Assembly: GCA_964291395.2 (NCBI GenBank)
Contig: OZ219858.1
Span: forward strand, 704,001 to 768,000
DNA from: Alphaproteobacteria bacterium
Lineage (GTDB): Bacteria > Pseudomonadota > Alphaproteobacteria > UBA2966
Length of the DNA stretch: 64,000 bases
Reading direction: 5' to 3'
The translations under genes were made by a program, and so were the position numbers. Below, one piece after another: positions 37,039 through 54,605 of this stretch. Position 1 is the stretch's first letter, and every line of letters starts with the position of its first letter. The notes beneath the pieces are model-generated. The model searched no databases. It was not told the DNA's origin and saw only the letters and a program-made list of their open reading frames with translations.

Positions 37039-38145
37039 ATGAGTTTCCTCAACGTGGGCGGCGAGAGTTGGGAGGATCTGGCGCTCGACGAAGGCCTCGT
37101 GCACATGGGACACAACTGCAATCACCTCGAGCTCGATCCGGCCATCCACGAAACGATGATCCAAGCGATCGACAGCGGCGCCTACCGGAACTACACGCCG
37201 CCCTATGGTTTCGACGATCTCGCCGCACTCATGGCGGCGGACGTCGATGTTCCAGGCACCGAGGTGATGGTCACCCAGGGGGCCACGGAGGCGATCTACC
37301 AGGCGATGGCCGCGATCCTCGGTCCGGGGGATCAGACCATCGTTTCCGATCCCGGATGGCCGCACATCCCGAACTTCGCCCGCTCGCTGGGGTCGGAGGT
37401 CGTGTCCATTTCGGTGTATTCGCCGAATGCGGGCTGGAAACTCGTCCCGGAGGTGGTGCGGAACCATGTAACACCGCGCACCAGACTGATCACCGTGATC
37501 GACCCGCTCAATCCCCTGGGCTCATGCTATGACGAGGTAGAGATCAAGGCGCTCTGCGAGATCGCCGAGGCCAACGACGCCTGGCTGTTGCACGACGCCA
37601 CCTACCGGGATTTTGCGACCGACAGGAACTTTCCCGCACCGGACTATTCCGAGCGCGCCGTCATGAACATCAGCCTTTCGAAGATCTGCGGTTTCGCAGG
37701 CCTTCGCGTCGGCGCCTCCTTCGCGCATCCCGCTCTCATGGCACGGATCCGCGAGCACCAAGTCGACCGACTCGGGGGGAATTGGGTGGCTCAGCAGGGT
37801 GCCATCGCCGCGTTCCGGACGAAGCCGAAATGGAAACCCCGGGTGCTTGAGATGAACCGGCGTAATCAGGAAGCAATCAAGGCTTGCGTCGATTCCATCG
37901 ATGCGCTGGAGGTCATCTCCTGGCCGCCCGCGGCCAACTTCGTCGCCATCGATATCACGGGAACCGGTCGCGACTCCGAAGCCGTGGTGCGCGCAGTCCT
38001 CGACGAAGGGTTCGTCATCCGCTCGGGCAACTACACCTCAGATCTCTACGGCCCCAATTTCGTGCGTGTAACCACGACGGTTCCCGACGACGACGTCCGC
38101 CGGTTTTGCGACGCGCTGCCGAAAGCTCTGGACCGGGTCTCCTGA
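37039..38145 (+). CDS. PLP-dependent aminotransferase class I/II
   Basis: GATEA, DPLNPLG, HDATY, SLSKICGFAGLRVG (PLP lysine). Confidence 0.9.
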   Translation: MSFLNVGGESWEDLALDEGLVHMGHNCNHLELDPAIHETMIQAIDSGAYRNYTPPYGFDDLAALMAADVDVPGTEVMVTQGATEAIYQAMAAILGPGDQTIVSDPGWPHIPNFARSLGSEVVSISVYSPNAGWKLVPEVVRNHVTPRTRLITVIDPLNPLGSCYDEVEIKALCEIAEANDAWLLHDATYRDFATDRNFPAPDYSERAVMNISLSKICGFAGLRVGASFAHPALMARIREHQVDRLGGNWVAQQGAIAAFRTKPKWKPRVLEMNRRNQEAIKACVDSIDALEVISWPPAANFVAIDITGTGRDSEAVVRAVLDEGFVIRSGNYTSDLYGPNFVRVTTTVPDDDVRRFCDALPKALDRVS

Positions 38146-38157
38146 AGTCGCGTATCC

Positions 38158-39057
38158 CTACCCCTTCTTGTTCTCTCGCCAGATGTCGTTGACCACGTTG
38201 TAGAGGTCGCTCCAGTCGTTGTCGCCGTGGCCCCGCTCCAGGGCGGCGTCGTAGGCCGCCAGCGCGGCGGGCGCGGTATAGCAGGGAAAGCCCTCCCGCT
38301 CCATCACCATGCGCGCGATGTTGACGTCCTTGCGGGCATGCTTGACGGCGAAGCCGGGGTTGAGGTTCCCCGCCAGCGCCTTGTTCGGGAAATGCTGTCT
38401 CGAGTGTCCGTTGCCCGCGATGGTGCCGTTGATGACTTCGAGCGCCTTGTCGGGACCGACGCCGCCCGATTCGGCAAGCCGCAACGCTTCGGCGACCATC
38501 ACGGCGCCAACCGTCGACATGAAGTTGTTGACGATCTTGCAGGTCATGCCGTGACCCACGTCGCCGCAGTCGATGATCGTCGTGCCCATGGCCTCGAGCG
38601 CCGGCATCGCCGTGGCCTTGTCTTCCGCCGAACCCGCGACCATGAACATCGAGGTGCCCTGGCGGGCATCATCGGCCGTCCGGCCCACCGGCGAATCGAC
38701 ATAGCCCCAGCCCGCGGACTTCGCCTGCTCGGCGAACTCAAGGACGGCGCCCGGATCGATGGTGCACATCACCATGACGACGCGTCCGTCGCCGGGGCTC
38801 TTCAGCAGCCCGTCGTCGCCGTTCAGCACGGCGTCGACCTCGGGCACGTCCGGCACCATGACGATGACGAGCTGCGAGCCCTCGCCGGTGGCGCCGGGCG
38901 TGTCGACGATCTCGCCGCCGTTCGCCTTGACCCCGTCGCCGGCGCCGGGAAGGGGGTCATACCCTTTCACTTTGAAGCCTGCCTTGAGCAGGTTGTTGGA
39001 CATCGACGTGCCCATGAGGCCGAGGCCAATGAAACCAACTTGTTCGATCTTGCTCAT
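38158..39057 (-). CDS. Beta-hydroxyacid dehydrogenase, sulfolactaldehyde reductase (YihU)-like
   Basis: GFIGLGLMG, DSPVGRT, KIVNNFMS. Confidence 0.82.
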   Translation of the reverse strand: MSKIEQVGFIGLGLMGTSMSNNLLKAGFKVKGYDPLPGAGDGVKANGGEIVDTPGATGEGSQLVIVMVPDVPEVDAVLNGDDGLLKSPGDGRVVMVMCTIDPGAVLEFAEQAKSAGWGYVDSPVGRTADDARQGTSMFMVAGSAEDKATAMPALEAMGTTIIDCGDVGHGMTCKIVNNFMSTVGAVMVAEALRLAESGGVGPDKALEVINGTIAGNGHSRQHFPNKALAGNLNPGFAVKHARKDVNIARMVMEREGFPCYTAPAALAAYDAALERGHGDNDWSDLYNVVNDIWRENKKG

Positions 39058-39268
39058 GTGTCCTTCCCTTGACGGCTGCGCTTCTCTCGATCCGACCGGC
39101 GGACCGGGACGCGCGAACCTACACGGCGCGTGTGGGCACTTCAACGGCGCGCCGCGGCTTCCGGTCCGACGACTTACATGAGCCGTCCAGATGCCTCCCG
39201 GCGCACTTGGAAGCAGCCGGTCCCCAGCGGCGCTGTGTTCGAAATCGAACCGGTGCAGACGCGGAACG

Positions 39269-40075
39269 TCAGGATTGGGGGTCGACGTCGAGTCGGGCGA
39301 CCACGCCGCTCAGGTTGGATTTCGGTGCCGGGTAATAGGTCATGACGAGGGGGTCATGGCCCGGGATGACGTGATCGGCGCTCCCGGCCATGTCGTGCAT
39401 GCGCCGATGGCCTTCCAGCATGTCGGCGACGTTGTAGACAACGGGGAACGGCGCGCCGGCGTGCATGTTCTCGTAAAAGTGGGCGGCATCGGAGGCGAGC
39501 ACCAACGGGCCTCGCCTGGTCGTCACGCAAACGAACTGCATGCCCATGGTATGGCCGCCCACGTGATGAACCGTAATCCCCGGCGCCACTTCGCCATCGC
39601 CATCGTGAAACGCAACGCGGCCGGCGAACACGTTTCTCACCAGATCGACAACGTGATCGCAGGAGTAAGAGTGCCCGAACGTCAGCTGACACATGTGGCG
39701 TCCCGTGGCGTAGGTCACCTCACTGTCCTGGATATGGAACCTTGCGGCCGGGAAGTCGCCCAGGGTGCCAGCGTGGTCGTAGTGCAGATGGGTGATGATC
39801 ACGTCCTCCACTTTCGCGGCATCAACGCCGATCATCTCGAGCCCCTCGCGCGGCAGCCGCTCGATGGTGCGGTTGCGACGTACTCCCTCTTCGGCGTCGA
39901 AGCCCGTATCCACGACGACGGTTCGGTCGTCGTTCACGATGGCCCAGACGAAATAGTCGATCGGCATGCCCCCTTCGTGGGGGTCGGGCGGCGTGATGAA
40001 GTTGTCCCGTCGCAGGCGTTCAGCAAACGTCCCGTAACGGATGGCGTAGACCTCGTAGGTCTCGGAATTGCTCAT
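39269..40075 (-). CDS. Metallo-beta-lactamase-fold lactonase family hydrolase
   Basis: VDTG, THLHYDHAG, GGHT, SDAAH, PGHDP. Confidence 0.88.
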   Translation of the reverse strand: MSNSETYEVYAIRYGTFAERLRRDNFITPPDPHEGGMPIDYFVWAIVNDDRTVVVDTGFDAEEGVRRNRTIERLPREGLEMIGVDAAKVEDVIITHLHYDHAGTLGDFPAARFHIQDSEVTYATGRHMCQLTFGHSYSCDHVVDLVRNVFAGRVAFHDGDGEVAPGITVHHVGGHTMGMQFVCVTTRRGPLVLASDAAHFYENMHAGAPFPVVYNVADMLEGHRRMHDMAGSADHVIPGHDPLVMTYYPAPKSNLSGVVARLDVDPQS

Positions 40076-40199
40076 CGTGTCTTCACCTGTTCTCTGAGTT
40101 GATCCCGGGCGTGCGTTGCCGAGAGCCACCCATTATAAGAGCAGCGGATCGGCGAAAAGGCGAGCCGGCGTCCAAGCCGGCCCCATCGCGGGAGAGGAT

Positions 40200-41447
40200 A
40201 TGGTCAAGCTGAACGACGAAGAACGGGCGATGCTCGCAGGCCGGTTGGGCGAGCCGCGCAGACTCTCCATGGAACACATCCTTGAGGTGGGCCGGTTCTT
40301 CGATGCCGAGGATCTGGTGGAAGTCAGCCAGGTCCACCTCATGGCGGACACCGAATCCACCGGTGAAGCCGGACTCCAATACCTCGAGATGCTCGGTAAG
40401 TATCCCGAAGGCGAACGTCGGGTGCGGGTGCCGACAGTGACCGATCCGCTCGGATGCGACTTCGCCAAGGCGGACCGGATCAACCATCCGGAAGAGTTCA
40501 TCGCCCAGGAACGGCGCCTCAGCGCCGCCTTCCAGAGCCTCGGCATTCTCATCACCCAGACCTGTATCAACTATCAGACCATCCTGCCGCCGGTCCTGGG
40601 TGAGCATCTGGCTTACGGCGATACGGGGTCGTCGATCTACGCCAACAGCGTGATGGGCGCGCGTACGAACTTCCAAGGCGGACCTTCGGCTCTGGCGGCG
40701 GCGCTTACCGGCCGGGTGCCGCGGTACGGATTTCACCTCGACGAGCGTCGGCGCGGTACCAATCTCTGGGAGCTTCGATGCCGGCCCGAGTCCCTGTCGG
40801 ATTGGGGTGCCGCCGGGGCCATCATCGGCCGGGCGCAGGGTTCGTACTGGGAAGTGCCAGTGATCGTGGGCGTCGACGATGCGCCCACGTCCGACGAGCT
40901 CAAGCAGTTCGGCGCCGCGCTGGCCAGCTTCGGGTCGACGCCCCTCTTTCACATGGTCGGCATCACGCCCGAGGCACCGGACCTCGCGTCGGTATTCGAT
41001 GGCCCGCCGCCCCACGCGACGGAGATCGCCCGCGCCGATATCGACGGGATCTACAGCGGATATCGGCCGGACGACGACAGGCTGGATGTGGTCGTCTTCG
41101 CCGCGCCGCAGTTGTCCCTGATCGAGATGCAGAAGGTGGGGTTGCTGCTCCGCGACCGCATGGTCCACCCCGACGTCACGGTGCTGGCCGCGACGTCGCC
41201 CGAAATCAAGGCTGCGTGCGACCGCATGGGCATCACCGAGATGATCGAGACCTCCGGGGCCGTCGTGCTCGAAGGGGTCTGCTTCTACCAGATGCATGCC
41301 CGGGAGATCGGCGAGGCCAACGGCTGGCGGCGCCTGATGAGCAACTCGGCCAAGATCGTCAACATCCTCGGCGGCTACGGCTATGAACCGGTGCTCGGCA
41401 CCATGGAACACTGTATCGACTCCGCTGTCGCGGGGAGGATCGCGTGA
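40200..41447 (+). CDS. Aconitase X catalytic subunit (DUF521)
   Basis: TCINY, YANSVMGARTN, LTGRVPRYGFHL, LKQFGAALASFG, LFHMVGITPEA, SNSAK. Confidence 0.88.
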   Translation: MVKLNDEERAMLAGRLGEPRRLSMEHILEVGRFFDAEDLVEVSQVHLMADTESTGEAGLQYLEMLGKYPEGERRVRVPTVTDPLGCDFAKADRINHPEEFIAQERRLSAAFQSLGILITQTCINYQTILPPVLGEHLAYGDTGSSIYANSVMGARTNFQGGPSALAAALTGRVPRYGFHLDERRRGTNLWELRCRPESLSDWGAAGAIIGRAQGSYWEVPVIVGVDDAPTSDELKQFGAALASFGSTPLFHMVGITPEAPDLASVFDGPPPHATEIARADIDGIYSGYRPDDDRLDVVVFAAPQLSLIEMQKVGLLLRDRMVHPDVTVLAATSPEIKAACDRMGITEMIETSGAVVLEGVCFYQMHAREIGEANGWRRLMSNSAKIVNILGGYGYEPVLGTMEHCIDSAVAGRIA

Positions 41448-41869
41448 TGGCGGACCGCGTCATCCGAGGCCATGTGGGGATCGGTACCAAGGTGGCGGGC
41501 GAGGCGCTGGTGGCCAACGACAACTTCAGCGCCCGCTATGATCTCGATCGCGTGAAGGGAGTCTTCTCCCGGCCGACACACAAGCTCGTCGGGCAGAGCT
41601 ATGTGGGCAAGGTACTGGTGCTCAACGTCGCCAAGGGCGGTGTGGCCACGGCGTGGATGCTGCGTGAGATGGCGGCCCGCGGGATGTGCCCCCTGGCCCT
41701 GCTGCTGAACTTCGCCAATCCGATCATGGCCCAGGGCGCGGCGTTCGGAGACGTCGCCCTGATCGACCGCTTCGAGGTCGACATCACGAGCGCGATCCGG
41801 ACTGGCGAGCGGGTCACGGTCGACCCGGAAACGGGCACGGTGACGGTCCACGGCGGAGGCCCGCGTTGA
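41447..41869 (+). CDS. Aconitase X swivel subunit (DUF126)
   Basis: GEALV...H-x-LVGQS-x-VGKVLV...KGG; start overlaps the stop of the large subunit. Confidence 0.85.
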   Translation: MADRVIRGHVGIGTKVAGEALVANDNFSARYDLDRVKGVFSRPTHKLVGQSYVGKVLVLNVAKGGVATAWMLREMAARGMCPLALLLNFANPIMAQGAAFGDVALIDRFEVDITSAIRTGERVTVDPETGTVTVHGGGPR

Positions 41870-41930
41870 CCCCGCCGGGTCTGATTCTTACAGTCCCAGG
41901 CAATGAATGAGACTCGGGGAGGATAGTGCC

Positions 41931-42392
41931 GTGAAGATCGAATCCCATTTCGAAAAGATCGAGCGGTTCGACGCGCTGAGGGAGCGTCTCGACCACTTCG
42001 AGGATTTCGAGATCTGGTTCTGGACCACCATGAACGCGGGCACCAACGCGGTGAACGCGGCATTACATGCCACGGGGATCACGGAGGACGGGTCCTGGTA
42101 TCCCCAGCAGCCCGGCGTCTACATGGTGGCGGACGACGAGCCCGGCACCTTCGTTCCCGCCTTCAAGCCGTTGGGCGACGTGCTGCACGTGGGCCGGCCG
42201 AAGATCGAGAAGCCGATCCCGGAGAAAGTCCAGCGCATCGCCGACCTCATGGACGTCATCGAAGAGTGGCGTGATCCCTGCGTGCGAGATGGCGAGCCCG
42301 TCACGCGGGAAATCGTCGACACGGTGGACACCGCCTACCGCGAGGTCGTCGCTCTGGCCCGCGAGGTGGCCGCCGAGGCGGCGGGAGGCTGA
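41931..42392 (+). CDS. Hypothetical protein, paralog of the next ORF
   Basis: GGAGG site upstream of GTG 41931; strong C/G third-position bias; motifs shared with 42394-42774. Confidence 0.75.
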   Translation: MKIESHFEKIERFDALRERLDHFEDFEIWFWTTMNAGTNAVNAALHATGITEDGSWYPQQPGVYMVADDEPGTFVPAFKPLGDVLHVGRPKIEKPIPEKVQRIADLMDVIEEWRDPCVRDGEPVTREIVDTVDTAYREVVALAREVAAEAAGG

Positions 42393-42393
42393 G

Positions 42394-42774
42394 ATGGACA
42401 GCAAGGGGCACCGGGAGTTCGCCGAACGCATCATGGGCACCCTGGAAAAGCTCGGACCCGAGGACTACGAGATGACCATCGAGGGTGCCATGCTCGCCGC
42501 CACCCATTGGGTGAATTATGCGCTGCACGAGTTCGGGGTCACGGACGCGGACGACGACGTCCAACACACCTACTTCCTGAGCGGCAACGACTGGCAGAAG
42601 TACGGAATCGTCGCCGAGGAACTGCTGCAGGCGCTTGACGAGATCGAGAAGACGAGGCCGATGTACGTGCGCGGCGACGTGGCGGGCGGCGAGAAAGCGG
42701 CTACCCGCGCCTGCGAACTGCTGGCCCGCTCGAAGGAATTGGCCCTCGCCGCGGAGCCCTTGTCCGCACTCTAG
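42394..42774 (+). CDS. Hypothetical protein, paralog of the previous ORF
   Basis: GGAGG site, ATG 1 nt after the upstream stop, coding-like bias. Confidence 0.78.
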   Translation: MDSKGHREFAERIMGTLEKLGPEDYEMTIEGAMLAATHWVNYALHEFGVTDADDDVQHTYFLSGNDWQKYGIVAEELLQALDEIEKTRPMYVRGDVAGGEKAATRACELLARSKELALAAEPLSAL

Positions 42775-42874
42775 TCACCGCGACTGTCGGCCCCGGCGTC
42801 GCGTCGTCGTATCGGGACGTGAGTCGCGCTCGGCGTTGCGGGGACCGTCGAGACCATACTGGGAGAATGGGATC

Positions 42875-43783
42875 ATGGAACGCATCGGATTCATCGGCAT
42901 CGGGACCATGGGACGGCCGATGTCCGCCAACCTCGTCAAGGCGGACTATCCCATGACCGTCTACGACGTCGTGGCCGACGCGACCAGGCCGGTCGTCGAG
43001 CTCGGCGCTCGTGCCGCGGGTTCGATCGCGGAACTGACCGAGGCCAGCGACATCATCTTCACGATGGTGCCGAACTCGCCCGACGTCGAGGCGGTGGTTC
43101 TCGGTCCCGACGGTATCGTGGAGAACGGCCGCGAAGGGGTCATGGTCGTCGACACCAGCACCATCTATCCGGAGGTTACGGACAGGGTCGCCGCGGGCCT
43201 CGCCGATAGAGGAATGGAGTTCGTCGACGCGGGAGTCGGCCGTCAGCAGGTGCACGCGGAGGCGGGCGAGCTGATGTTCATGGTCGGCGCCACTGACGAG
43301 GGCATGGCGCGCGTCCGGCCCCTGCTTGAAATCATGGGCGATACCATCGTCCACGTCGGTCCGCCCGGCCAGGGCATCCGCATGAAGCTGATCAACAATC
43401 TGCTCGCCGGTTTCACCAATCAGGCCAGCGCCGACGCTATCGCCTTTGCGCTCAAGCTCGGCCTGCCCTTCGACAAGGTTATGGAGGTCTTGACCGGAAC
43501 GGCCGCCCGGACCGGCCATCTCTCCATCACCTGGCCCAACAAGATCTTCAAGGGCGACGACACGCCCGGCTTCTCCATCGCGCTTCAGGACAAGGACGTG
43601 AACTTGGCGCTACGACTCGCCGAGAGCATCGGCGCGCCTCTCGATCTCGGCGAGGCGACCCGGAAATCCTTCGTGTCGATGATCGAGCGTGGGTACGGCG
43701 GCAAGGACTTCTCCGCCGCTTTCGCCGCCGCCTGCGAGAAGGCCGGCGTCCCCTTGCCACCGCCCGGCGCCGAGAAGGGGTAG
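42875..43783 (+). CDS. Beta-hydroxyacid dehydrogenase family oxidoreductase
   Basis: GFIGIGTMG, DTSTI, DAGVGR, KLINN, KD. Confidence 0.88.
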   Translation: MERIGFIGIGTMGRPMSANLVKADYPMTVYDVVADATRPVVELGARAAGSIAELTEASDIIFTMVPNSPDVEAVVLGPDGIVENGREGVMVVDTSTIYPEVTDRVAAGLADRGMEFVDAGVGRQQVHAEAGELMFMVGATDEGMARVRPLLEIMGDTIVHVGPPGQGIRMKLINNLLAGFTNQASADAIAFALKLGLPFDKVMEVLTGTAARTGHLSITWPNKIFKGDDTPGFSIALQDKDVNLALRLAESIGAPLDLGEATRKSFVSMIERGYGGKDFSAAFAAACEKAGVPLPPPGAEKG

Positions 43784-43831
43784 CGACCCTTCCCCCACAC
43801 CAGCCGTGCCGCCTGCACCCTTTTCCGATCT

Positions 43832-44908
43832 CTACATCACCGCCGGGATCTCGGTGTCGTCGAGGCCGGCGTCGCGCGCCACCTGACATATCTCGGCCCA
43901 GCTCACCGCGTCGATGGGCACACCCGACTCCGTCCGGGTCTTGAACGAGATCTGTTCCGGATCGCCCGGCACCAGGACCGCCTCTACGCCGGGGGCTGGG
44001 GGAGTCGATGTCAGGTATGCATAAAGCGCCTCGATCTCGGCGTCGTAGTAGGCGCGGTCGACCATGAGTTCCGGATCGAAGATTACCGACAAGAGTCCGT
44101 TGAGGGTGGCGCCGTCCCCATCCCGTTCCGCGAGCATCACGCCGCCGCCGGTGAGTGCGCCGGCGAACATCTCCGCCGCGACGCCAAGTGCGTAACCCTT
44201 GTGACCGCCGACGGGAAGCAGGGCTCCGGTAGGCGGTTCATAAAGGACGGCGGGGTCCGTCGTCGGATGGCCCTCGCTGTCGATGATCACGCCCTCCGGC
44301 ATGCGGTCTCCCCGATTGAGCGCCACGCGCACCTTGTTCATGGCGACGACGCTGGAGGCCATGTCGACGAGGATCGGCGGCGCGTTCCGCCGGGGAAAGG
44401 CCGCAGTGTAGGGCGCAGTCCCCATCCGGGGCGCGGCACCGCCGAAGGGCGCCACGATCGGCGGGCGATTCGTTCCGTTGGAGAAGTGCATGGAGACGAA
44501 CCCGGCTTCGGCGCACATTTCCGCCCACTCCCCGATGCGTCCGAGATGATGGGTATTACGGATGCCCATCAGAACGAACCGGTCGGTTCTCGCCTTGTCG
44601 ATGGCCAGGGCCATCGCCTCCCGGCCGACCGCCTGCCCATATCCTCTCTGACCGTCGACGATGAGGACCGGTCCTTCATTCTTGACGACCATGATGTTCC
44701 GGTTGGGCGCGATGCGTCCGTCGAGCGCCCGCTCCACATAGCGCGGCACGATGCTGACGCCATGGGAGTCGTGACCCATCAGCGAGGTCTCGACGAGCGA
44801 CGTCGCGATCGCCTCGGCCTCGGCGACACTGGACCCGATCCTCGTAAAGATTTCGCGGATGAAGTCGGTAAGAGCCGTGGGCTCGATATGGACGTCGGGT
44901 TGGCTCAT
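43832..44908 (-). CDS. Ldh_2 family (malate/lactate/ureidoglycolate-type) oxidoreductase
   Basis: GHDSHG, THHLGRIG, DMASS, GGHKGYAL. Confidence 0.9.
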   Translation of the reverse strand: MSQPDVHIEPTALTDFIREIFTRIGSSVAEAEAIATSLVETSLMGHDSHGVSIVPRYVERALDGRIAPNRNIMVVKNEGPVLIVDGQRGYGQAVGREAMALAIDKARTDRFVLMGIRNTHHLGRIGEWAEMCAEAGFVSMHFSNGTNRPPIVAPFGGAAPRMGTAPYTAAFPRRNAPPILVDMASSVVAMNKVRVALNRGDRMPEGVIIDSEGHPTTDPAVLYEPPTGALLPVGGHKGYALGVAAEMFAGALTGGGVMLAERDGDGATLNGLLSVIFDPELMVDRAYYDAEIEALYAYLTSTPPAPGVEAVLVPGDPEQISFKTRTESGVPIDAVSWAEICQVARDAGLDDTEIPAVM

Positions 44909-45080
44909 GAAAACTCGGGTCGAGGCTCCGGTCGGCGCTAGGGCTTACGGTGGCGGCCTGCATGAGGTCAAGCGCGTCGGAAGCCGGTCCGACTCGCCAC
45001 CATTCCCGGACCATGATAGCGTCTCGGCCAACGGGCGTCCGCGCGCCCGACCGCTGCACCCGAAGCAATGAGGGAACACG

Positions 45081-46394
45081 ATGGCTCAGGCTCTCACCAA
45101 TACTCTCGAACACCACTGGCTTCCGTTCACCGCGAACCGGCAATTCAAGGAAGAGCCGCGCCTGATGTCAAAGGCGGAGGGGATGTACTACTGGAATCAC
45201 AAGGGCGAGCGGATCATCGACGCATGTTCGGGACTGTTCTGCTGCGCCGCGGGCCACGGCCGCAAGGAAATCGCCGAGGCCGTCCAAAAGCAGTTGATGG
45301 AGATGGACTACGCGACGAGCTTCCAGCTCGGACATCCCTCGTCCTTCGAGCTCGCCTACCGGATCGCGGCAATGATGCCGGGAGACATCAACCGTGTGTT
45401 CTTCGCCAATTCCGGCTCCGAGGCTGTGGAAACGGCAATGAAGATCGCGTTGGCTTACTTCTGGGCCAAGGGCGAGGGCCAGCGTGTGCGCTTCGTCTCA
45501 CGCGAACGCGCTTACCACGGCGCGAACTTTGGCGGCACAGCATTGTCGGGCCTGGTCAAGAACCGCGAAGTTTACGGCACCGGCCTTCCCGGCGTGGTGC
45601 ACATGCGCCATACCCATCTGCCGGATCATGAGTTCGTCAAAGGACAGCCCGAGACCGGCGCCGAGATGGCCGACGATCTCTTGCGTTTCGTCCAGCTTTA
45701 CGGCGGCGGCACGATCGCGGCCTGCGTCGTGGAGCCGGCCGCGGGATCGACCGGTTGGCTGGTGCCGCCGAAAGGCTACCTCGATCGCCTGCGCGAGATC
45801 TGCGACGAGCACGGCATCTTGCTGATCTTCGACGAGGTCATCTGCGGATTCGGCCGGACGGGCAAGGCGTTCGCCGCACAGACCTTCGACGTGGTCCCGG
45901 ACATGATGATCATGGCCAAGGCGCTGACCAATGGCGCCCAACCGATGTCGGCGGCCGCCATCCGGGAGGAGATCTACGACACCATCGTCGATCAGGCGCC
46001 GGAAAACGCGATCGAGCTGTTTCACGGCTACACCTATTCGGCACATCCGGCCGCCTGCGCGGCCGCCATCGCGGCACAGGACATCTATGAGAAGGACAAG
46101 CTGTTCGAGCGGGGCGAGGAGATGTCGCCCTACTTCGTGGATGCCGTCATGGATCTCCGGGACATCCCGATCGTCGAGAACATCCGGGCACAGGGGATGA
46201 TGGCGGGCATCGATCTCGCGTCGGCCGAGCGGCCGGGAACCCGGGGGTTCGATGCGCAGATCAAGCTGTTCAATGCGGGCCTCCATCTCAAGACGACTGG
46301 GGACTGCGCCCTCGTGGCACCGGCATTGATCGCCGAAAAGAACCACATCGACGAGATATCCGGCGTGCTGCGGGACGTCCTGAGCAGCTACTAG
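45081..46394 (+). CDS. Class III aminotransferase (beta-alanine/omega-amino acid:pyruvate type)
   Basis: WLPFTANRQFK, NSGSEAV, RAYHG, FDEVICGFGR, AKALTNG, HGYTYSAHP. Confidence 0.9.
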   Translation: MAQALTNTLEHHWLPFTANRQFKEEPRLMSKAEGMYYWNHKGERIIDACSGLFCCAAGHGRKEIAEAVQKQLMEMDYATSFQLGHPSSFELAYRIAAMMPGDINRVFFANSGSEAVETAMKIALAYFWAKGEGQRVRFVSRERAYHGANFGGTALSGLVKNREVYGTGLPGVVHMRHTHLPDHEFVKGQPETGAEMADDLLRFVQLYGGGTIAACVVEPAAGSTGWLVPPKGYLDRLREICDEHGILLIFDEVICGFGRTGKAFAAQTFDVVPDMMIMAKALTNGAQPMSAAAIREEIYDTIVDQAPENAIELFHGYTYSAHPAACAAAIAAQDIYEKDKLFERGEEMSPYFVDAVMDLRDIPIVENIRAQGMMAGIDLASAERPGTRGFDAQIKLFNAGLHLKTTGDCALVAPALIAEKNHIDEISGVLRDVLSSY

Positions 46395-46444
46395 CCGGCG
46401 CGGCCGTCCGGGTCGCAGAGCGGAATTTGCTGCGGGGGATAGGA

Positions 46445-47230
46445 ATGGATCTCGGGCTCGATGGAAAAGTCGCGGTCGTCGCCGGCGGCAGCCGCGGCAT
46501 CGGCAAGGGGATCGCCCGCAAGCTGGCGGAAGAAGGCTGCGATCTTCTGCTGGTAGCGGTCACGGAAACGAACCTGAAGGCCGCGTGCGAGGAAATCGCG
46601 GCGAAGACCGATCGTCGGGTGGAGATCTGCGCGGTCGATCTCGGTGGCCCGAAGGGCGCGGATACGGCGCTCGACGTCGCAACTTCCACATACGGACGGA
46701 CGGACATCCTGGTGAATTCCGCCGGCGTCGCCGTCGGCGGCGCCTTTCTCGATCTCACGGACGAGGTCTGGCAGCGGGGCTTCGGACCCAAACTGTTCGG
46801 CACGGTCCGCATGTGCCAGCGATTCTGGCCCATGCTCAGGGAAGCGAACGGATCGGTCGTCAATATCGCCGGAACCCGCGGGAAGGTGCCCGCCCATGAT
46901 TTCATGGTCAATTCGGCGGTGAACGCCGCGTTGATGAATTTCACCAAGGCGCTCGCCGGTCTCGGCCTCATCGACGACGTGAACGTCAATTGCGTCATCC
47001 CTGGCCAGACCAAGACCGATCTCCTCTACGACAACTTCCGTCAGGCGGCAAAGATGGACAGCTCGACGCCCGAGGAGGTGGAGAAGAAGCGGATCGCCGC
47101 GACCGGACTGCGCCGCTTCGGCGAGCCCGAGGACATCGCAAATCTCGTGGCGTTTCTCGTCTCGCCCCTGGGCCGGCACGTGCACGGCGCCATGCTCCCC
47201 GTCGATGGAGGCACCGACAAGGCGCTCTGA
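46445..47230 (+). CDS. Atypical SDR lacking YxxxK
   Basis: AGGSRGIG, NSAG; active-site helix reads NSAVNAAL. Confidence 0.85.
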   Translation: MDLGLDGKVAVVAGGSRGIGKGIARKLAEEGCDLLLVAVTETNLKAACEEIAAKTDRRVEICAVDLGGPKGADTALDVATSTYGRTDILVNSAGVAVGGAFLDLTDEVWQRGFGPKLFGTVRMCQRFWPMLREANGSVVNIAGTRGKVPAHDFMVNSAVNAALMNFTKALAGLGLIDDVNVNCVIPGQTKTDLLYDNFRQAAKMDSSTPEEVEKKRIAATGLRRFGEPEDIANLVAFLVSPLGRHVHGAMLPVDGGTDKAL

Positions 47231-48748: not shown

Positions 48749-49420
48749 ATGGCGGACTATCCCTTTCTCGTGCTCTCGGACGGCACCGTGACGATGCTCG
48801 CGCCTCATGTCTATCGGCGCCAGGATGCTTCCGACGATGAGATGTTCTATGCCGTTCCCCGTCTGGTGACGCATATCGATGACGGCGCGTGCACTGCCCT
48901 CGCCGCCTTTTACGAGGAAACCCTCGAGCCCGGCGCCGACGTGCTCGACCTCATGTCGAGCTGCGTCTCCCATCTGCCTGCCGGCGTGGCATACGGAGAC
49001 ATCGTCGGGCTCGGGATGAACCACACGGAGCTTCGGGAGAACCCCCGATTGTCGCGGCACGTGGTCCACAACCTCAATCGCGACACGCGGCTGCCGTTTG
49101 GCGACGACTCGTTCGATGCTTGCCTGTTGGCCCTGTCGATCCAGTATCTGGTGCGGCCCGTGGAGGTGTTCCGCGACGTGGGCCGCGTTCTGAGATCCGG
49201 CGCGCCGATGATCGTGTCCTATTCGAATCGCCTGTTTCCGACCAAAGCGGTTATGATTTGGCAAATGCTCCATGCCGTGGATCAGGGCCGTCTTGTCGCA
49301 CACTACTTCGAGGCAGCGGGGTGTTTCGATGCTCCCGATATCAAAGACCTCAGACCCGATCCGGGGAACTCGGATCCCCTGTACGCGGTCGTCGCGCGGC
49401 ACCGCGACTCCGTCGGCTGA
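48749..49420 (+). CDS. Class I SAM-dependent methyltransferase (type 11-like)
   Basis: FYAVPRLVTHID, VLDLMSS, SIQYL, SNRLFPTKAV. Confidence 0.8.
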   Translation: MADYPFLVLSDGTVTMLAPHVYRRQDASDDEMFYAVPRLVTHIDDGACTALAAFYEETLEPGADVLDLMSSCVSHLPAGVAYGDIVGLGMNHTELRENPRLSRHVVHNLNRDTRLPFGDDSFDACLLALSIQYLVRPVEVFRDVGRVLRSGAPMIVSYSNRLFPTKAVMIWQMLHAVDQGRLVAHYFEAAGCFDAPDIKDLRPDPGNSDPLYAVVARHRDSVG

Positions 49421-49444
49421 TGTCCACGTCTTGAGATCCTTTCG

Positions 49445-50341
49445 ATGACGATAAGCGTAACGCCCTTGGGCGAGTCGTTCGGCGCGGAAATCGGCAATGT
49501 CGATTTGACCGCGTCGCTGGACGAGGCGACGTTCTTGGAGATCAAGGGCGTTCTCGTCGAAAGGCAGGTCGCCGTGATCTCGGAGGTGCCCGCTGATGTC
49601 GAAGTCCTGGTCGGCTTCGGGCGCCGCTTTGGCACGTTCAGGCCTCACATTCTCACCCAGTATCGCCATCCCGAGGCCGACGAGATCGCGGTCATCTCCA
49701 ACGACCCCGAGTCCGGTTTCGGCCGCACGACGAAACGCCCCGCCGGCTCTTTCTGGCATGCCGACCTGACTTACGAGGAAAAACCGTGTGACGTCTCGTT
49801 TCTCTATTCGGTGCAGGTGCCGGAGGAGGGCGGAGATACCCGGTTCGCCGACATGGCCGGCGCTTACGATGCGTTGCCCAGCGCGCTCAAGGACAGGATC
49901 GAGGGTCTGACCGCGATTCATCGCTACGGTGGCCGCAATCCCAGCGACTCGATCGTGAAACTCTCGGACGAACAGCACGCAGCGCACCCCGAAGTGGAGC
50001 ACCCGGTCGTCAAGGCGATCCCCGAGACAGGCCGCAAGTCCCTCTACGTGAGTCCCGGCTGGACAGTTCGGATCGTCGGCTATTCGGAAGAAGACAGCGA
50101 CGACTTGCTCGAAGAGCTGTACCGGCACGCACTGCGACGCCGGTTCCAATACCGGCACAAATGGCGGGACCGCCAGATCGTATTTTTCGATAACCGGTCG
50201 ACCATGCACAGCGCCACACCCGACTATCCCGCCGATGCCAAACGGACGCTCTACCGCATGTTCGTGGCCTTCGACGACGATGCCCGAGCGGAGCGGGACG
50301 GAGACTCCCTGACGCCGTCCGCACGGGGCCACCGCGACTAG
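49445..50341 (+). CDS. TauD/TfdA family 2-oxoglutarate dioxygenase
   Basis: WHAD (HxD), GGDTRFAD, HPVV, DNRSTMH. Confidence 0.9.
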   Translation: MTISVTPLGESFGAEIGNVDLTASLDEATFLEIKGVLVERQVAVISEVPADVEVLVGFGRRFGTFRPHILTQYRHPEADEIAVISNDPESGFGRTTKRPAGSFWHADLTYEEKPCDVSFLYSVQVPEEGGDTRFADMAGAYDALPSALKDRIEGLTAIHRYGGRNPSDSIVKLSDEQHAAHPEVEHPVVKAIPETGRKSLYVSPGWTVRIVGYSEEDSDDLLEELYRHALRRRFQYRHKWRDRQIVFFDNRSTMHSATPDYPADAKRTLYRMFVAFDDDARAERDGDSLTPSARGHRD

Positions 50342-50415
50342 TCAACCTTCTTGAGACCAATTGGTGCAGATGGACGGCCAATAGACGCTTGTGCGACGAA
50401 CGGGGCTCGGTCACC

Positions 50416-51543
50416 ATGCCGTCCATGACTCCCTTCCGCATGGGCCACGCGGCATCGTCCGATTGGCACGGCGCTCTGCGGAGAGCGCTCATCATGGCGG
50501 ACATCCCGCGTGATCAGGCGAATGTTGGCTTTCTCTATGTCACGGATCATTTCGCCGACGACGTCCAGGACATCCAGGTCGAACTGCAGACCCGAACGGG
50601 AATCGAAACCTGGGTCGGCACGACAGGAATCGGGATATGTGCCACGGGCATCGAGTACTTCGATGAGCCCGCCCTTGCGCTTCTCGTTTGCTCGATCCCG
50701 GGTGAAGCGATTCATTTGCTCGATACGGGTTCGGATGCACCCGACGAGGCGTCGGCGAAGCTGGCGGGCGCGTTGGGAACGCGCGAAGGGCGGTTCGGCC
50801 TCGTGCACGCCGATCCTCACAATGCCGATCTGGGCGAATTGATCCCGGCGGTCGTCGAGGCCACAGGGGCTTTCCTTGTCGGGGGCCTGACATCGTCACG
50901 CGGCGCTCATCCGCAGCTCGCGGGCACGGTGACCGCGGGCGGCGTATCGGGTGTGCTGTTCGAACCGGACGTCGCCGTCGCGACGGGACTGACCCAAGGA
51001 TGTACCCCTATCGGTCCGGTACACGAGGTGACCGACTGTCAGGAGAACATCATCGTTACGCTGGATGAACGGCCCGCTCTCGAAGTTCTGAAGGAGGATA
51101 TCGGAGAAGTTCTGGCGCGTGATCTCCGGCGCATCGGCGGCTACATCTATGTGGCCTTTCCCGTAAGCGGGGCGGACCGGCCCGACTATCTCGTCCGCAA
51201 TATCCTCGCCGTCGATCCGGCCGCTCACGTGTTTGCCGTTGGCGCCGTTGTCGACAAGGGAGACACCATCATGATCTGCCGCCGAGACGGGCAGGCGGCA
51301 CATCTGGATCTCACGCGGATGCTCGAGGATCTCGGCCAGCGGGTCGGCGAATCACGGCCACGGGGCGGCATCTATCACTCCTGCTTGGCACGCGGGCCAA
51401 ATCTGTTCGGTTCTAACTCGGAAGAGCTTCGAACCATTCAGGACGCGCTCGGCGATGTGCCCCTCGTCGGCATGTTTTGCAACGGTGAGATCAGCCATCA
51501 GCGGCTGTACGGATATACCGGCGTCCTCTCGCTGTTCCTCTAG
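50416..51543 (+). CDS. FIST N/C domain protein
   Basis: WVGTTGIG, TQGCTPIG, YLVRN, SCLARG, GMFCNGEI, LYGYTGV. Confidence 0.88.
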   Translation: MPSMTPFRMGHAASSDWHGALRRALIMADIPRDQANVGFLYVTDHFADDVQDIQVELQTRTGIETWVGTTGIGICATGIEYFDEPALALLVCSIPGEAIHLLDTGSDAPDEASAKLAGALGTREGRFGLVHADPHNADLGELIPAVVEATGAFLVGGLTSSRGAHPQLAGTVTAGGVSGVLFEPDVAVATGLTQGCTPIGPVHEVTDCQENIIVTLDERPALEVLKEDIGEVLARDLRRIGGYIYVAFPVSGADRPDYLVRNILAVDPAAHVFAVGAVVDKGDTIMICRRDGQAAHLDLTRMLEDLGQRVGESRPRGGIYHSCLARGPNLFGSNSEELRTIQDALGDVPLVGMFCNGEISHQRLYGYTGVLSLFL

Positions 51544-52594: not shown

Positions 52595-53665
52595 CTAGGA
52601 TAGTCGCACATCGAACGGCTCTCCCACCTTCTCGCCCGCTTCACGCAGTTCGGCGATGATCTCGGGCGGAATGGGAATCCCGTTCGCCGTCCTCTCCCGC
52701 TCCGTGTCGGCCGCCCGCTGGCCGGGAAGACGGCCGTCCGCGCCCGTCGCCGTCAGATATTGAGAAACCCAGCCTTCGACGTGACGCTCGAAAGTTTCAC
52801 GGCCGACAATGCGCTCTGGGTTTGCCACGAAAAAGAAAGCTCCGACGTGCATGGTGGCACTGCCGATCGCGGGGGCCACACCGCGCATGGTCGGCGCGAA
52901 GGTTCCCGACAGGCTGGCGGCCAAGCATTCGATCATCATGGCAAGCCCGATGCCTTTCGGTCCGCCGACCGGCAGCATGGCACCCAGCAGGGCCTGCTCC
53001 GCGTCCGTGGTTGGTTCGCCGTCGGGGCCTATAGCCCACCCCTCGGGAATGTCCCGGCCGGCCCGGTGCGCCATCAGGACACGGCCACGAGACGTGACGC
53101 AGGTCGCCATGTCAAACAGCAAGGGATCCCGTCCCGGAAGCGGCGTGGCGAAGGATATCGGATTGTTGCCGATCGACCTTCCTTTTGAGCCGGGCAGTGA
53201 CATGACCGGCGACGTCGCCTGCATCAGGACCGACACCATGCCTGCCTCTGCCGCGCGCAACGGAAAGACCCCGACGGCGCCGAGGTGACCGCCATCTCGG
53301 ATGAAGCACGGTACGAAGGCGGTATCACGAGCCAAGTCGATGGCGCGGTCCATGGCCCTGGGGCCCACGACCTGGCCGAGGCCGTCGTTCCCGTCGATGA
53401 CGAGAATGTTGTCGCGGCTCTCGAAGGTGATGTTGGGCGCGGGGTTGATCTCGCCGGCGGCGAACTTCTGGACGTACGTCATGACACGGGTCACGCCGTG
53501 CGTTTCGTATCCGCGGGCGTTGCAGCGGGCCATGACTTCGGCGGCCAACCGCGAGTCGTCATCGGGCATCCCGCAGGCCGCGAATACGCGGGCCAGCCAA
53601 GACGTCAACGCCTGGCGCGGAGCGCGCCGCGGACCGGCCGTTGCGTCGTCGAAAACCGCGGACAT
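52595..53665 (-). CDS. Ldh_2 family oxidoreductase (ComC sulfolactate dehydrogenase-like)
   Basis: GYETHG, HLGAVG, GNNPI, DMAT, GGPKG; directly downstream of an slcC-like gene. Confidence 0.82.
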   Translation of the reverse strand: MSAVFDDATAGPRRAPRQALTSWLARVFAACGMPDDDSRLAAEVMARCNARGYETHGVTRVMTYVQKFAAGEINPAPNITFESRDNILVIDGNDGLGQVVGPRAMDRAIDLARDTAFVPCFIRDGGHLGAVGVFPLRAAEAGMVSVLMQATSPVMSLPGSKGRSIGNNPISFATPLPGRDPLLFDMATCVTSRGRVLMAHRAGRDIPEGWAIGPDGEPTTDAEQALLGAMLPVGGPKGIGLAMMIECLAASLSGTFAPTMRGVAPAIGSATMHVGAFFFVANPERIVGRETFERHVEGWVSQYLTATGADGRLPGQRAADTERERTANGIPIPPEIIAELREAGEKVGEPFDVRLS

Positions 53666-53669
53666 CGAT

Positions 53670-54605
53670 CTAACCTCCCCGACCCAGGGCGTCGCGCACG
53701 GACTCGGCGATCATCAGGCTTGAGCGCAGCAGCGCCTCCTGCGTCAGCCCGGCACAATGGGGGGTCAGAGCCGCGTTGGGGACACCCTCGAACACGTTGC
53801 CTGCCGCCAAAGGTTCCTCCTCGAAGACATCGATGAATGCGTTGCCGATCTCGCCGTTCCTGAGTGCCACCGCCAAGGCCGCGTCGTCGACCACGCCACC
53901 CCGGGCCGTGTTGATGAGCATGGAGTCGGGTTTCATCTTCTTCAGCGCGTCGGCGTCGATGAGATGACGCGTGCCGTCGGTTCGGGGCACGCTCAGGCTG
54001 ACCACGTCGGCCTCGGTCAGCACGCCGTCGAGGGTCGCCGGGGCGACCCCGTACTCTGCCCACAGCGGGTCGTCGTCCTCGATGAACGGGTCGTATGCCA
54101 GTATCCGCATGCCGAACGCCTTCGCCCGTTTGGCAACCTCGCGACCGATGACGCCGAAACCCACCAGCCCAAGTGTCTGGCTCCTGGCTTCGCGACCTAT
54201 CACCTTCCTGCGCGGCCAGTTACCGGCGCGCACGTCCTCGGTTACGCCGTACATGGCCTGCCGAAGCATGACCAGCATGGCGCCCATGACGTACTCCGAG
54301 ACGGACTCCTCGAGCGTCCCGCGCGCCGGCTGGACCTTGACGCTTCGGATTTCGCAGGCACGCACGTCAATGTTGTCGAGCCCCACGCCCAGGCGGCCGA
54401 CGATGATCAGGTTCGGCGCCGAGTCGAGCAGCGGCGGCCGGACTTGGGTGCGATTCCGCACGATGAGACCCCGGCAATCCCCTAGCCGCGCGTAGAGTTC
54501 CTCGGTGCGATTAACCAGATCGGGGTCGTAGTAGACATCGAAGTCTGCAGACAGTCGATCGACTGCCTCTTCGTCGAGGAATTCACTGATGACGATGTCC
54601 GCCAT
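53670..54605 (-). CDS. D-2-hydroxyacid dehydrogenase, SlcC-like
   Basis: DIVISEF-x-DE N-terminus, IVRNRTQV, GRLGVGLDNID, NTARGG, DVFEEEP, TPH. Confidence 0.82.
   Translation of the reverse strand: MADIVISEFLDEEAVDRLSADFDVYYDPDLVNRTEELYARLGDCRGLIVRNRTQVRPPLLDSAPNLIIVGRLGVGLDNIDVRACEIRSVKVQPARGTLEESVSEYVMGAMLVMLRQAMYGVTEDVRAGNWPRRKVIGREARSQTLGLVGFGVIGREVAKRAKAFGMRILAYDPFIEDDDPLWAEYGVAPATLDGVLTEADVVSLSVPRTDGTRHLIDADALKKMKPDSMLINTARGGVVDDAALAVALRNGEIGNAFIDVFEEEPLAAGNVFEGVPNAALTPHCAGLTQEALLRSSLMIAESVRDALGRGG

Follow-up and report, generated by a model that had tools for sequence, protein, structure and literature searches.

Two subunits of the enzyme aconitase X (AcnX), followed on the same strand by two small open reading frames (ORFs), raise the question of whether all four gene products form a single enzyme or whether the locus combines systems that work apart. 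The genes lie in a stretch of 64,000 nucleotides (nt), referred to here as the window, which corresponds to positions 704,001 to 768,000 of the forward strand of contig OZ219858.1 in assembly GCA_964291395.2 (Alphaproteobacteria bacterium). An initial annotation had read them as an uncharacterized AcnX subfamily, possibly with the small ORFs (sORF1 and sORF2) as further components of a four-component enzyme; the first part of that interpretation has held up, and the second has not. We think it probable that the locus contains two separable modules joined in one lineage, whose DNA is found mostly in sponge-metagenome runs, rather than one four-subunit enzyme. The most interesting point is that its AcnX belongs to an abundant, uncharacterized subclass with a rebuilt active site from which the presumed catalytic Ser has been lost. 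The four genes and the gap between the two modules are as follows.

40200..41447, + strand: AcnX large (catalytic) subunit; PF04412, E 6.1e-107, 358.2 bits against a cut-off of 31.5 bits, profile positions 2 to 400 of 400
41444..41869, + strand: AcnX small (swivel) subunit; PF01989, E 5.5e-19, 68.2 bits against a cut-off of 27 bits
41868..41881 and 41866..41894, + strand: weak hairpin and promoter-like site, respectively, from a promoter/terminator scan of the 61-nt gap between the AcnX small subunit gene and sORF1
41931..42392, + strand: sORF1, 153 amino acids (aa), GTG start with GGAGG upstream
42394..42774, + strand: sORF2, 126 aa, ATG start, 1 nt after sORF1

The G+C content at third codon positions (GC3) is 0.78 to 0.87 in these genes, like that of their neighbors in a window of ~65% GC, and we therefore regard them as coding and not as chance ORFs. 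Mechanically, the AcnX large-subunit ORF extends to a TTG at 40116; the ATG at 40200 is preceded closely by GGGAGAGGA, and the orthologue at L002, one of the close relatives of the window discussed below, is a 90% identical protein of 415 aa that starts from the same Met. The stop codon of this gene (TGA, 41445 to 41447) overlaps the GTG at 41444 and the ATG at 41447 of the small-subunit gene (GTGATG). The hairpin and the promoter-like site in the 61-nt gap may mark a module boundary; neither count in this gap was above that in shuffled controls.

Does the small ORF pair belong with AcnX? We compared 80 genome loci containing a relative of sORF1, onto which the window, Cupriavidus, and Xanthobacteraceae proteins were mapped. 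sORF2 followed sORF1 in 78 of these 80 loci. The usual neighbors of the pair were a UxaA/SuyAB-type dehydratase, Ldh_2, a TauD-type dioxygenase, and an MDR-type reductase, and not AcnX: an Ldh_2 gene was near the pair in 59 of the 80 loci, a UxaA-family dehydratase (PF20629 plus PF04295) in 57, a GntR/UTRA regulator in 53, a TauD-family gene in 51, a Zn-ADH or quinone-oxidoreductase-type gene in 47, a fused indolepyruvate-oxidoreductase-family gene in 42, and a TctC receptor in 40. AcnX was near the pair in only 7 of the 80. Six of those seven loci (L001 to L006) are close relatives of the window, with sORF1 proteins 88 to 95% identical to its own, and in the sORF1 tree the AcnX-adjacent copies (L001 to L006 plus the window) form one clade of seven with an SH-like support of 93. 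In the seventh case, a Xanthobacteraceae locus (L073), GntR and TRAP transporter genes separate the pair from an AcnX of this clade at a distance of 4 kb; its AcnX and sORF1 are 54% and 48% identical to those of the window, and a UxaA-type gene is also present at the locus.

Examined from the AcnX side, the result was the same. Nine extended loci of the AcnX clade yielded no sORF match at E <= 1e-3, and two AcnX-clade plasmid loci with 9-kb flanks likewise contained none. The initial annotation had called for a test of whether the small ORFs co-occur with this AcnX clade and had named an absence of conserved linkage as the outcome that would count against its view, and that is essentially what we found. 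The window's own genome has three pairs and three AcnX large genes, which are adjacent only in the window, the two further pairs being far from any AcnX. The families also differ greatly in size: AcnX small-subunit relatives, which are very common in metagenomes, make up at least 8000 sequence clusters at E <= 1e-10, in comparison with 278 homologues of sORF1 (52 of sORF2) and 152 representatives. The latter figure comes from an HMMER search with the sORF1 profile at E <= 0.001 over 1.84 billion representatives; no informative fusion was found among the best 150 of these 152. The four longest matches were inspected: P0233 joins P450 and SDR fragments in a chimera, P0218 and P0185 have extra C-terminal stretches without an sORF2 match, and the remaining one, P0219, is without a family match. 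Finally, the AcnX enzymes of known structure need no more than one or two chains to be complete, according to PMC8184944.

These results bear directly on the proposal that sORF1 and sORF2 are obligate extra AcnX subunits. With AcnX near the pair in 7 of 80 loci and no pair in 11 other AcnX-clade loci, the four-component reading is unsupported. It can still draw on the close spacing of the genes on one strand (61 nt after the AcnX small-subunit gene and 1 nt between the small ORFs), on the adjacency kept in L001 to L006, and on contigs from RNA libraries that touch all four genes, but we consider it highly improbable.

Is the AcnX, taken by itself, an enzyme of a known kind? In PDB sequence searches, the large subunit aligned end to end with TK1249 of T. 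kodakarensis (E 8.9e-50) and, by phmmer, over the whole large domain with AtAcnX of A. tumefaciens (E 2.8e-37), and the small subunit matched TK1248 (7cnr_B; E 1.4e-12). Two AcnX activities are known, and other bacterial subclasses await characterization; among them, Types IIc to IIf are bacterial, have small and large chains, are without the landmark residues of either known activity, and are uncharacterized. This background and the residue roles used below are from PMC8184944. The equivalents of Cys273 (in TQTC), Cys508 (in GVCFY), and Lys530 of AtAcnX are kept in the window AcnX. Elsewhere, the window clade has Gly for Ser70 (the proposed base), Val for Cys71, Ala for Thr72, Arg for Trp35, Met for Asp203, Thr for Ile206, Asp for Asn233, Asp-Thr-Gly (in GDTG) for Glu292-Ser293-Asn294, Ala for Ser449, Tyr for Cys510, and Ile for Tyr534. 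The catalytic base Ser on the swivel domain is thus replaced by the Gly of AKGGVAT, in 13 of 13 clade members and in 2 sister sequences, and the small-subunit pocket Trp is replaced by the Arg of FSARY. A third iron-sulfur (Fe-S) ligand is also missing, the equivalents of Cys510 and of Cys283 in the T. kodakarensis enzyme being Tyr and Ala, which leaves only two cluster Cys residues. The residues that bind hydroxyproline (Asp203, Thr72, Trp35, Ile206, Ser293, and Tyr534) correspond to Met, Ala, Arg, Thr, Thr, and Ile, and those that bind phosphate in the archaeal enzyme (Gly48-Val49-Ser50, Asn53, and Asn79) correspond, in a phmmer alignment to 7cnr_A, to Ala, a gap, Asp, Ser, and Asp.

Phylogeny gave the same picture. 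Relatives came from 400 other genomes of the same class, 10 of which matched at E <= 1e-80, from plasmids, of which 164 records matched, all at <60% identity, and from the own genome with its three AcnX large genes. The references were sequences found with the curated LhpI model, of which one (L121) passes the cut-off and nine are split forms scoring 357 to 391 bits. In the large-subunit alignment (n = 27), all 13 members of the window clade (53 to 100% identity; the 12 relatives are 53 to 90% identical to the window AcnX) share the same substitutions, and all 10 references keep Asp203, Asn233, Cys273, Glu-Ser-Asn, Cys508, Lys530, and Tyr534. Among 26 aligned small subunits or domains, AKGGVA[TS] and FSARY are invariant in the clade, and the references have GS[CS]S and SF[WC]G. 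IQ-TREE grouped the window clade with a Cys-less sister pair (support, 100/100) apart from the references (99/98), to which the window AcnX is 27 to 33% identical. The NCBIfam equivalog NF051439 (LhpI) gave 203.9 bits for the large subunit and 21.2 bits for the small subunit against a cut-off of 700, on a model built on the fused form, for which split landmark-bearing forms score 357 to 391. The DUF521 phylogeny that the initial annotation had called for therefore does not nest the window AcnX with the landmark-bearing, hydroxyproline-type sequences, and the view of it as an uncharacterized subfamily is borne out. Judged by its sequence, it is a real AcnX outside both characterized functional types, and it fits what PMC8184944 says of Types IIc to IIf (bacterial, split chains, landmark residues missing) as a group, without one letter from c to f being singled out.

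The comparison with each characterized type is instructive. Like AtAcnX, the window enzyme combines PF04412 with PF01989 and keeps Cys273, Cys508, and Lys530, so an alpha,beta-elimination at the Fe-S center would be expected of it; it differs in its separate clade, its low identity, and the lack of a hydroxyproline gene context in the window. A hydroxyproline-type enzyme whose pyrroline-2-carboxylate product is reduced by the nearby Ldh_2 protein would account for the Ldh_2 gene that adjoins the operon, and Type IIa enzymes likewise have only two cluster Cys residues (PMC8184944). All six of the hydroxyproline-binding residues as well as the base Ser70 are changed, however, the LhpI score lies far from the 357 to 391 bits of two-subunit landmark-bearing forms, the clade is separate, and the window has no proline-racemase-family gene, as initially noted; the genome's sole PF05544 match is on another contig, at C1:1261317. 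We regard this explanation as almost certainly wrong. The archaeal Type-IIb enzyme TK1249/TK1248 (mevalonate-5-phosphate dehydratase; PDB 7CNR/7CNS) resembles that of the window in having two subunits and is its best PDB match, but the phosphate-binding residues are not kept, and Cys283, Ser62 of the small subunit, and Tyr365 are replaced by Ala, Gly, and Ile, respectively. Moreover, the host of the window is bacterial, and the scanned ORFs of the window included no family of the mevalonate pathway (about 18.5 to 20.2, 22.4 to 26.2, and 34.9 to 35.7 kb lay outside the scan), in agreement with the first description of the locus. Assignment as either a hydroxyproline or a phosphomevalonate dehydratase was rejected on the basis of the replaced substrate residues, the separate clade, and the low LhpI score.

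Other AcnX genes provide points of comparison. The own genome has two more AcnX large genes in tandem (C1:892911-895940; L090 6882-9983), 27 to 29% identical to that of the window, with Glu-Gly-Asn for Glu-Ser-Asn and a Cys at the position of Cys283 of the T. kodakarensis enzyme. They lie between an ABC ATPase gene and luciferase-like/OYE-type oxidoreductase genes with a single small-subunit match found between them. In the sister group of the window clade (L102/L103 and L111/L112, from genomes G262 and G098; 45% identity), both remaining cluster Cys residues are replaced, by Tyr and Glu, and GDTG reads GSTP; its sequences may represent an Fe-S-free AcnX. Their neighbors include a type-I phosphodiesterase-family gene, a Crp regulator, a metallophosphoesterase, and AtuA-like genes. 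The 120 listed relatives of the AcnX small subunit are all at least 73% identical to it and are named only "DUF126" or "predicted aconitase with swiveling domain."

What, then, is the small ORF pair? Neither sORF1 nor sORF2 has a Pfam or NCBIfam match. They are paralogous, as first proposed: BLASTP aligned their first 52 residues at 38% identity (E 6e-6), and profile-profile comparison of the two families by hhalign gave a probability of 96.5% (E 7.4e-10) over 108 columns. The stop codon of sORF1 and the start codon of sORF2 are separated by -13 to +6 nt in 72 of 77 loci, a spacing typical of translationally coupled genes. Named hosts of the homologues include Cupriavidus, Paraburkholderia, Caballeronia, Variovorax, and Hydrogenophaga. 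Invariant residues of sORF1 include H6, W29-F30-W31, N42, H46, Q60-P61, G82-D83, H86, G88-R89-P90, E111, R114, C117, and R119, and those of sORF2 include H6, D24, E26, W39, N41, H45, D55, H58, E85, R88, and R93-G94, so that the pattern H...N...H...E-x2-R-x4-R is common to both families. AlphaFold2 predicted four helices for each protein, with a beta-hairpin insert in sORF1 (pLDDT 90.9) and without one in sORF2 (pLDDT 94.7).

The predicted folds resemble those of HEPN proteins. VIA-align ranked 2hsb (Z 11.6), 1wol (11.1), 1ufb (10.0), and 3o10 (9.9) highest for sORF2, over 111 to 117 residues, and 3o10 (10.9), Roquin (10.7), and 2hsb (10.6) highest for sORF1; Z values below ~13 are unreliable for helical bundles, and all of the HEPN matches are below that level. 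Foldseek matched 1wol with a probability of 1.00 and a TM score of 0.62, with all E values above 0.1; for both small ORFs, nothing in PDB was found at E <= 0.001, and PDB sequence-profile searches with both families gave nothing below E 0.3. No HEPN profile in Pfam, NCBIfam, or PADLOC matched. In ESM Atlas, the homologue P0083 belongs to a "hypothetical" cluster of 1051 members; a HEPN cluster, reached at 0.90, serves as a lead only. The HEPN nuclease motif is Rx4-6H; the pair has E-x2-R-x4-R at the corresponding place (E111/R114/R119 in sORF1 and E85/R88/R93 in sORF2). Given Z values below the trusted level, the lack of a sequence match, and the absence of Rx4-6H, a "HEPN-like fold" is the most that we claim. 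The likeness to AF_0298 (2HSB), ST0689 (1WOL), TT1696 (1UFB), and sacsin (3O10) consists of an up-down four-helix bundle of similar size; the differences are the missing sequence match and motif, a paralogue as partner, and a catabolic context. The pair would constitute a separate, undescribed HEPN-like family and not AcnX subunits.

The modeled resemblance to minimal HEPN proteins also brings up the idea that the pair is a HEPN toxin-antitoxin or defense cassette that came by chance to be inserted beside a metabolic operon, and a PIN-domain gene in the vicinity of the own genome's third pair could be cited in its support. We judge this very improbable, given that Rx4-6H is replaced by E-x2-R-x4-R in both families, that the partner is a paralogue and no nucleotidyltransferase, that no PADLOC model matched, and that the pair lies consistently inside catabolic clusters with a GC3 like that of its neighbors.

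The extra pairs of the own genome are at C1:1554023-1554942 (L088) and C1:2194305-2195134 (L089), with a lone sORF2-like fragment at C1:2197556-2197786. One of them is divergent from Zn-ADH and TauD genes, and the other follows a molybdenum hydroxylase and is near the PIN-domain gene; the UxaA-type genes of this genome (C1:2136690 and C3:1241750) are near neither of them, and none is in the window. Pairs that are more divergent in sequence sit with porin/BON, TauD, MFS, TctC, SDR, CMD, or acyl-CoA ligase genes. L018 931-15665 (Cupriavidus necator A5-1) and ~40 similar loci represent a cluster that is conserved in Burkholderiales and whose function is unknown; in it, a fused indolepyruvate-oxidoreductase-family gene, Ldh_2, GntR, and UxaA are divergent from a series consisting of sORF1, sORF2, a PIG3-type quinone oxidoreductase, TauD, PntAB, an SDR, and an APH-family kinase. 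The HEPN-like pair represents a conserved, unannotated family, and culturable members of Cupriavidus, Paraburkholderia, and Variovorax have it in their catabolic clusters.

On what substrate might the window AcnX act? The genes on either side of the four are listed here.

38158..39144, - strand: beta-hydroxyacid dehydrogenase of the HIBADH type (a), PF03446 plus PF14833; likely start at the Met of MSKIEQVGF, ~39057
39269..40129, - strand: MBL-fold hydrolase, PF00753 (E 2.2e-16), divergent from the AcnX genes; likely start at the Met of MSNSETYEV, ~40075
42875..43783, + strand: beta-hydroxyacid dehydrogenase of the HIBADH type (b), PF03446 plus PF14833
43832..44908, - strand: Ldh_2-family 2-hydroxyacid/2-oxoacid dehydrogenase, PF02615 (344.7 bits), convergent with the operon

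The layout first described, with overlapping AcnX genes, two small ORFs, a HIBADH gene, and a divergent hydrolase upstream, was confirmed throughout. The top NCBIfam match of both dehydrogenases is sulfolactaldehyde 3-reductase, at 227.5 bits for a and 271.2 bits for b, below the 348-bit cut-off. Dehydrogenase a was found in L001 to L006 and belongs to the conserved core of the window lineage; dehydrogenase b was found in L002 to L006, as was the Ldh_2 gene, which scored 387.1 bits with NF007504, above the cut-off of 336 bits. The MBL-fold hydrolase, at 65.7 bits far below the 375-bit cut-off of N-acyl-homoserine-lactonase models, was found in L001 to L004 and was not detected in L005 or L006 among the lineage loci compared.

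For the AcnX clade more widely, eight of the nine extended loci were scanned with Pfam, together with two plasmids; L106 is a near-duplicate of L105, from the same genus, and was left out. Class-I fumarase-like subunits were near the clade AcnX at L104, L105, L107, and L091, and succinate-dehydrogenase-like Fe-S or cytochrome subunits were near it at L104, L107, and L091. NitT/TauT-type (NMT1-like) binding protein and ABC genes directly follow the small-subunit gene at L104, L105, and L107. TauE/SafE was found at L104, L107, and L108; ComA and a luciferase-like monooxygenase at L108; SulP, malate synthase G, and glycolate oxidase at L092; PrpF and PrpD at L110; and 2-Hacid_dh at L104, L107, and L112. 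Such surroundings are compatible with small anionic acids, whether sulfonated or di-/tricarboxylic, and a catabolic role on a hydroxy-acid is plausible for the window AcnX.

On this basis, we propose the following for the two modules. The first, AcnX, would be a two-subunit Fe-S hydro-lyase of an uncharacterized bacterial Type-II subclass. Since an Arg replaces Trp in the swivel subunit and a Met replaces the amine-binding Asp, its substrate would carry a second anionic group and might be a C3-C4 dicarboxylic or sulfonated hydroxy-acid. The enzyme would catalyze alpha,beta-elimination or addition (of water or, conceivably, of sulfite) at the Fe-S center, and the flanking HIBADH-type and Ldh_2 dehydrogenases would take the neighboring redox steps. 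The second module, sORF1-sORF2, would consist of ancient paralogues with a HEPN-like four-helix bundle that lacks the nuclease motif; most likely a heterodimer, it may be an anionic-ligand binder or a small accessory protein or enzyme that works in organic-acid or sulfonate catabolic clusters. Because the presumed catalytic base is missing from the AcnX clade, work on this clade could uncover a third AcnX chemistry with a different mechanism.

Several points weigh against treating the modules as separate or against the details above. Throughout the window lineage, AcnX and the pair stay adjacent in assembled genomes down to ~88% sORF1 identity, and this adjacency may reach ~73% identity. The co-location at L073 may mean that two modules serve one pathway, and contigs from RNA libraries on all four genes fit co-expression. 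The AcnX tree was built without archaeal Type-IIb sequences and has only one reference (L121) above the LhpI cut-off, and the substrate class is drawn from residue changes together with soft context. The adjacency within the lineage and the arrangement at L073 fit a shared pathway as well as a complex.

A shared pathway with an exchanged lyase is one alternative to this explanation. It would make AcnX a C3-sulfonate Fe-S lyase or hydratase in place of a SuyAB-type enzyme, with the pair as an accessory to either lyase. The substrate would be 3-sulfolactate or a hydration product formed along a 3-sulfopropanoate route. The model for it is the SuyAB/SlcC/ComC cluster of Chromohalobacter salexigens and Paracoccus spp., used here as a works-like comparison only. 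In PMC12421959 (Tables S1 and S2), the sulfolactate cluster has a GntR/UTRA regulator, a SuyB of PF20629 plus PF04295, and a ComC of PF02615, and common neighbors of the pair belong to the same Pfam families as this regulator, SuyB, and ComC; a TctC-type receptor is also usual near the pair. On a Variovorax plasmid, a cluster with UxaA at 71% identity has its genes arranged as GntR, hydroxyacid dehydrogenase, UxaA small, UxaA large, TctC, and Ldh, without the pair. The window itself contains, at 52595-54605 on the - strand, adjacent genes for an Ldh_2 protein and a D-2-hydroxyacid dehydrogenase (2-Hacid_dh), the two families to which ComC and SlcC, the sulfolactate "racemase" enzymes, belong in Pfam, as well as a TauD-family gene. 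The TauE/SafE, ComA, NitT/TauT-type ABC, SulP, and succinate-dehydrogenase- or fumarase-like genes beside clade AcnX, the second anionic group to which the Arg-for-Trp and Met-for-Asp changes point, and the presence at L073 of both lyase types by one pair also fit. The chemistry, elimination, would be of the same type for SuyAB and AcnX. Taken together, these neighborhoods suggest that AcnX may fill the role of a SuyAB-type lyase in the window lineage.

Other observations do not favor a sulfonate role. AcnX is unrelated to the UxaA family in sequence and cofactor, and the window has no SuyAB-type gene. The sulfonate family matches are all generic and below equivalog cut-offs; the Ldh_2 protein in 52595-54605, for example, has L-sulfolactate dehydrogenase as its top NCBIfam match at 200.9 bits, below the 500-bit cut-off. 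The own genome (4.16 Mb) contains 22 TauE/SafE matches, so adjacency to TauE carries little weight as evidence of sulfite export, and L104 and L107 are from the same genus. xsc was above cut-off in two of five AcnX-clade genomes and beside AcnX in none of the five. PrpF and PrpD (L110) and malate synthase and glycolate oxidase (L092) beside clade AcnX point to carboxylates instead, and in 18 of 82 rows of the sORF1 tree the pair has no dehydratase nearby. A literature search gave no link of AcnX or DUF521 to sulfonates among the matches listed, and the PMC12421959 supplement makes no mention of aconitase, DUF521, or DUF126. SlcC in that supplement is PF00389/PF02826, so the HIBADH genes beside AcnX do not mirror it, and we rejected them as SlcC counterparts. 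We consider the exchanged-lyase pathway unlikely, and we give a similarly low chance to the broader proposal that the AcnX clade is a new Fe-S enzyme of organosulfonate breakdown that replaces SuyAB, with the pair as a shared accessory, in sponge-associated bacteria among others. If the sulfonate lead is true, it would fill a gap in C3-sulfonate mineralization in marine and host-associated bacteria.

Is the locus found and expressed elsewhere? Public runs containing the 5.75-kb segment 39200-44950 numbered 20 and came from 14 studies; most were labeled as sponge metagenomes, with one coral metagenome run. In two metatranscriptome libraries, contigs cover the MBL gene in part (39441-39738 and 39814-40003). 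One RNA-library contig (41379-41637) spans the junction of AcnX large and small and another (42038-42448) that of sORF1 and sORF2, both without differences; AcnX large, the end of sORF2, and the HIBADH gene are also matched. These contigs lend weak support to expression of the AcnX and pair genes, as RNA libraries can contain DNA and contigs cannot show transcript ends; they are contigs and not reads, so that gaps in RNA coverage are not evidence of silence. An Rfam scan of 38000-46500 gave nothing at E <= 0.1.

By tblastn, the own genome is also rich in TauD-like (~26), HIBADH-like (23), Zn-ADH-like (17), and DctM-like (15) genes. The wider window is a dense catabolic run of M24/M20 hydrolases, class I/II and class III aminotransferases, and SDRs and also contains a third HIBADH-type gene, CMD, TauD, FIST, a quinone-oxidoreductase-type reductase, two GSTs, and a peptide-type ABC transporter. 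A methyltransferase-like gene, the TauD-family dioxygenase, and the FIST-domain protein stand in series at 48749-51543 on the + strand. At 26187-31034, the window encodes a 1615-aa bacterial NAD-specific glutamate dehydrogenase with all of its ACT and helical-motif domains, which appears ordinary.

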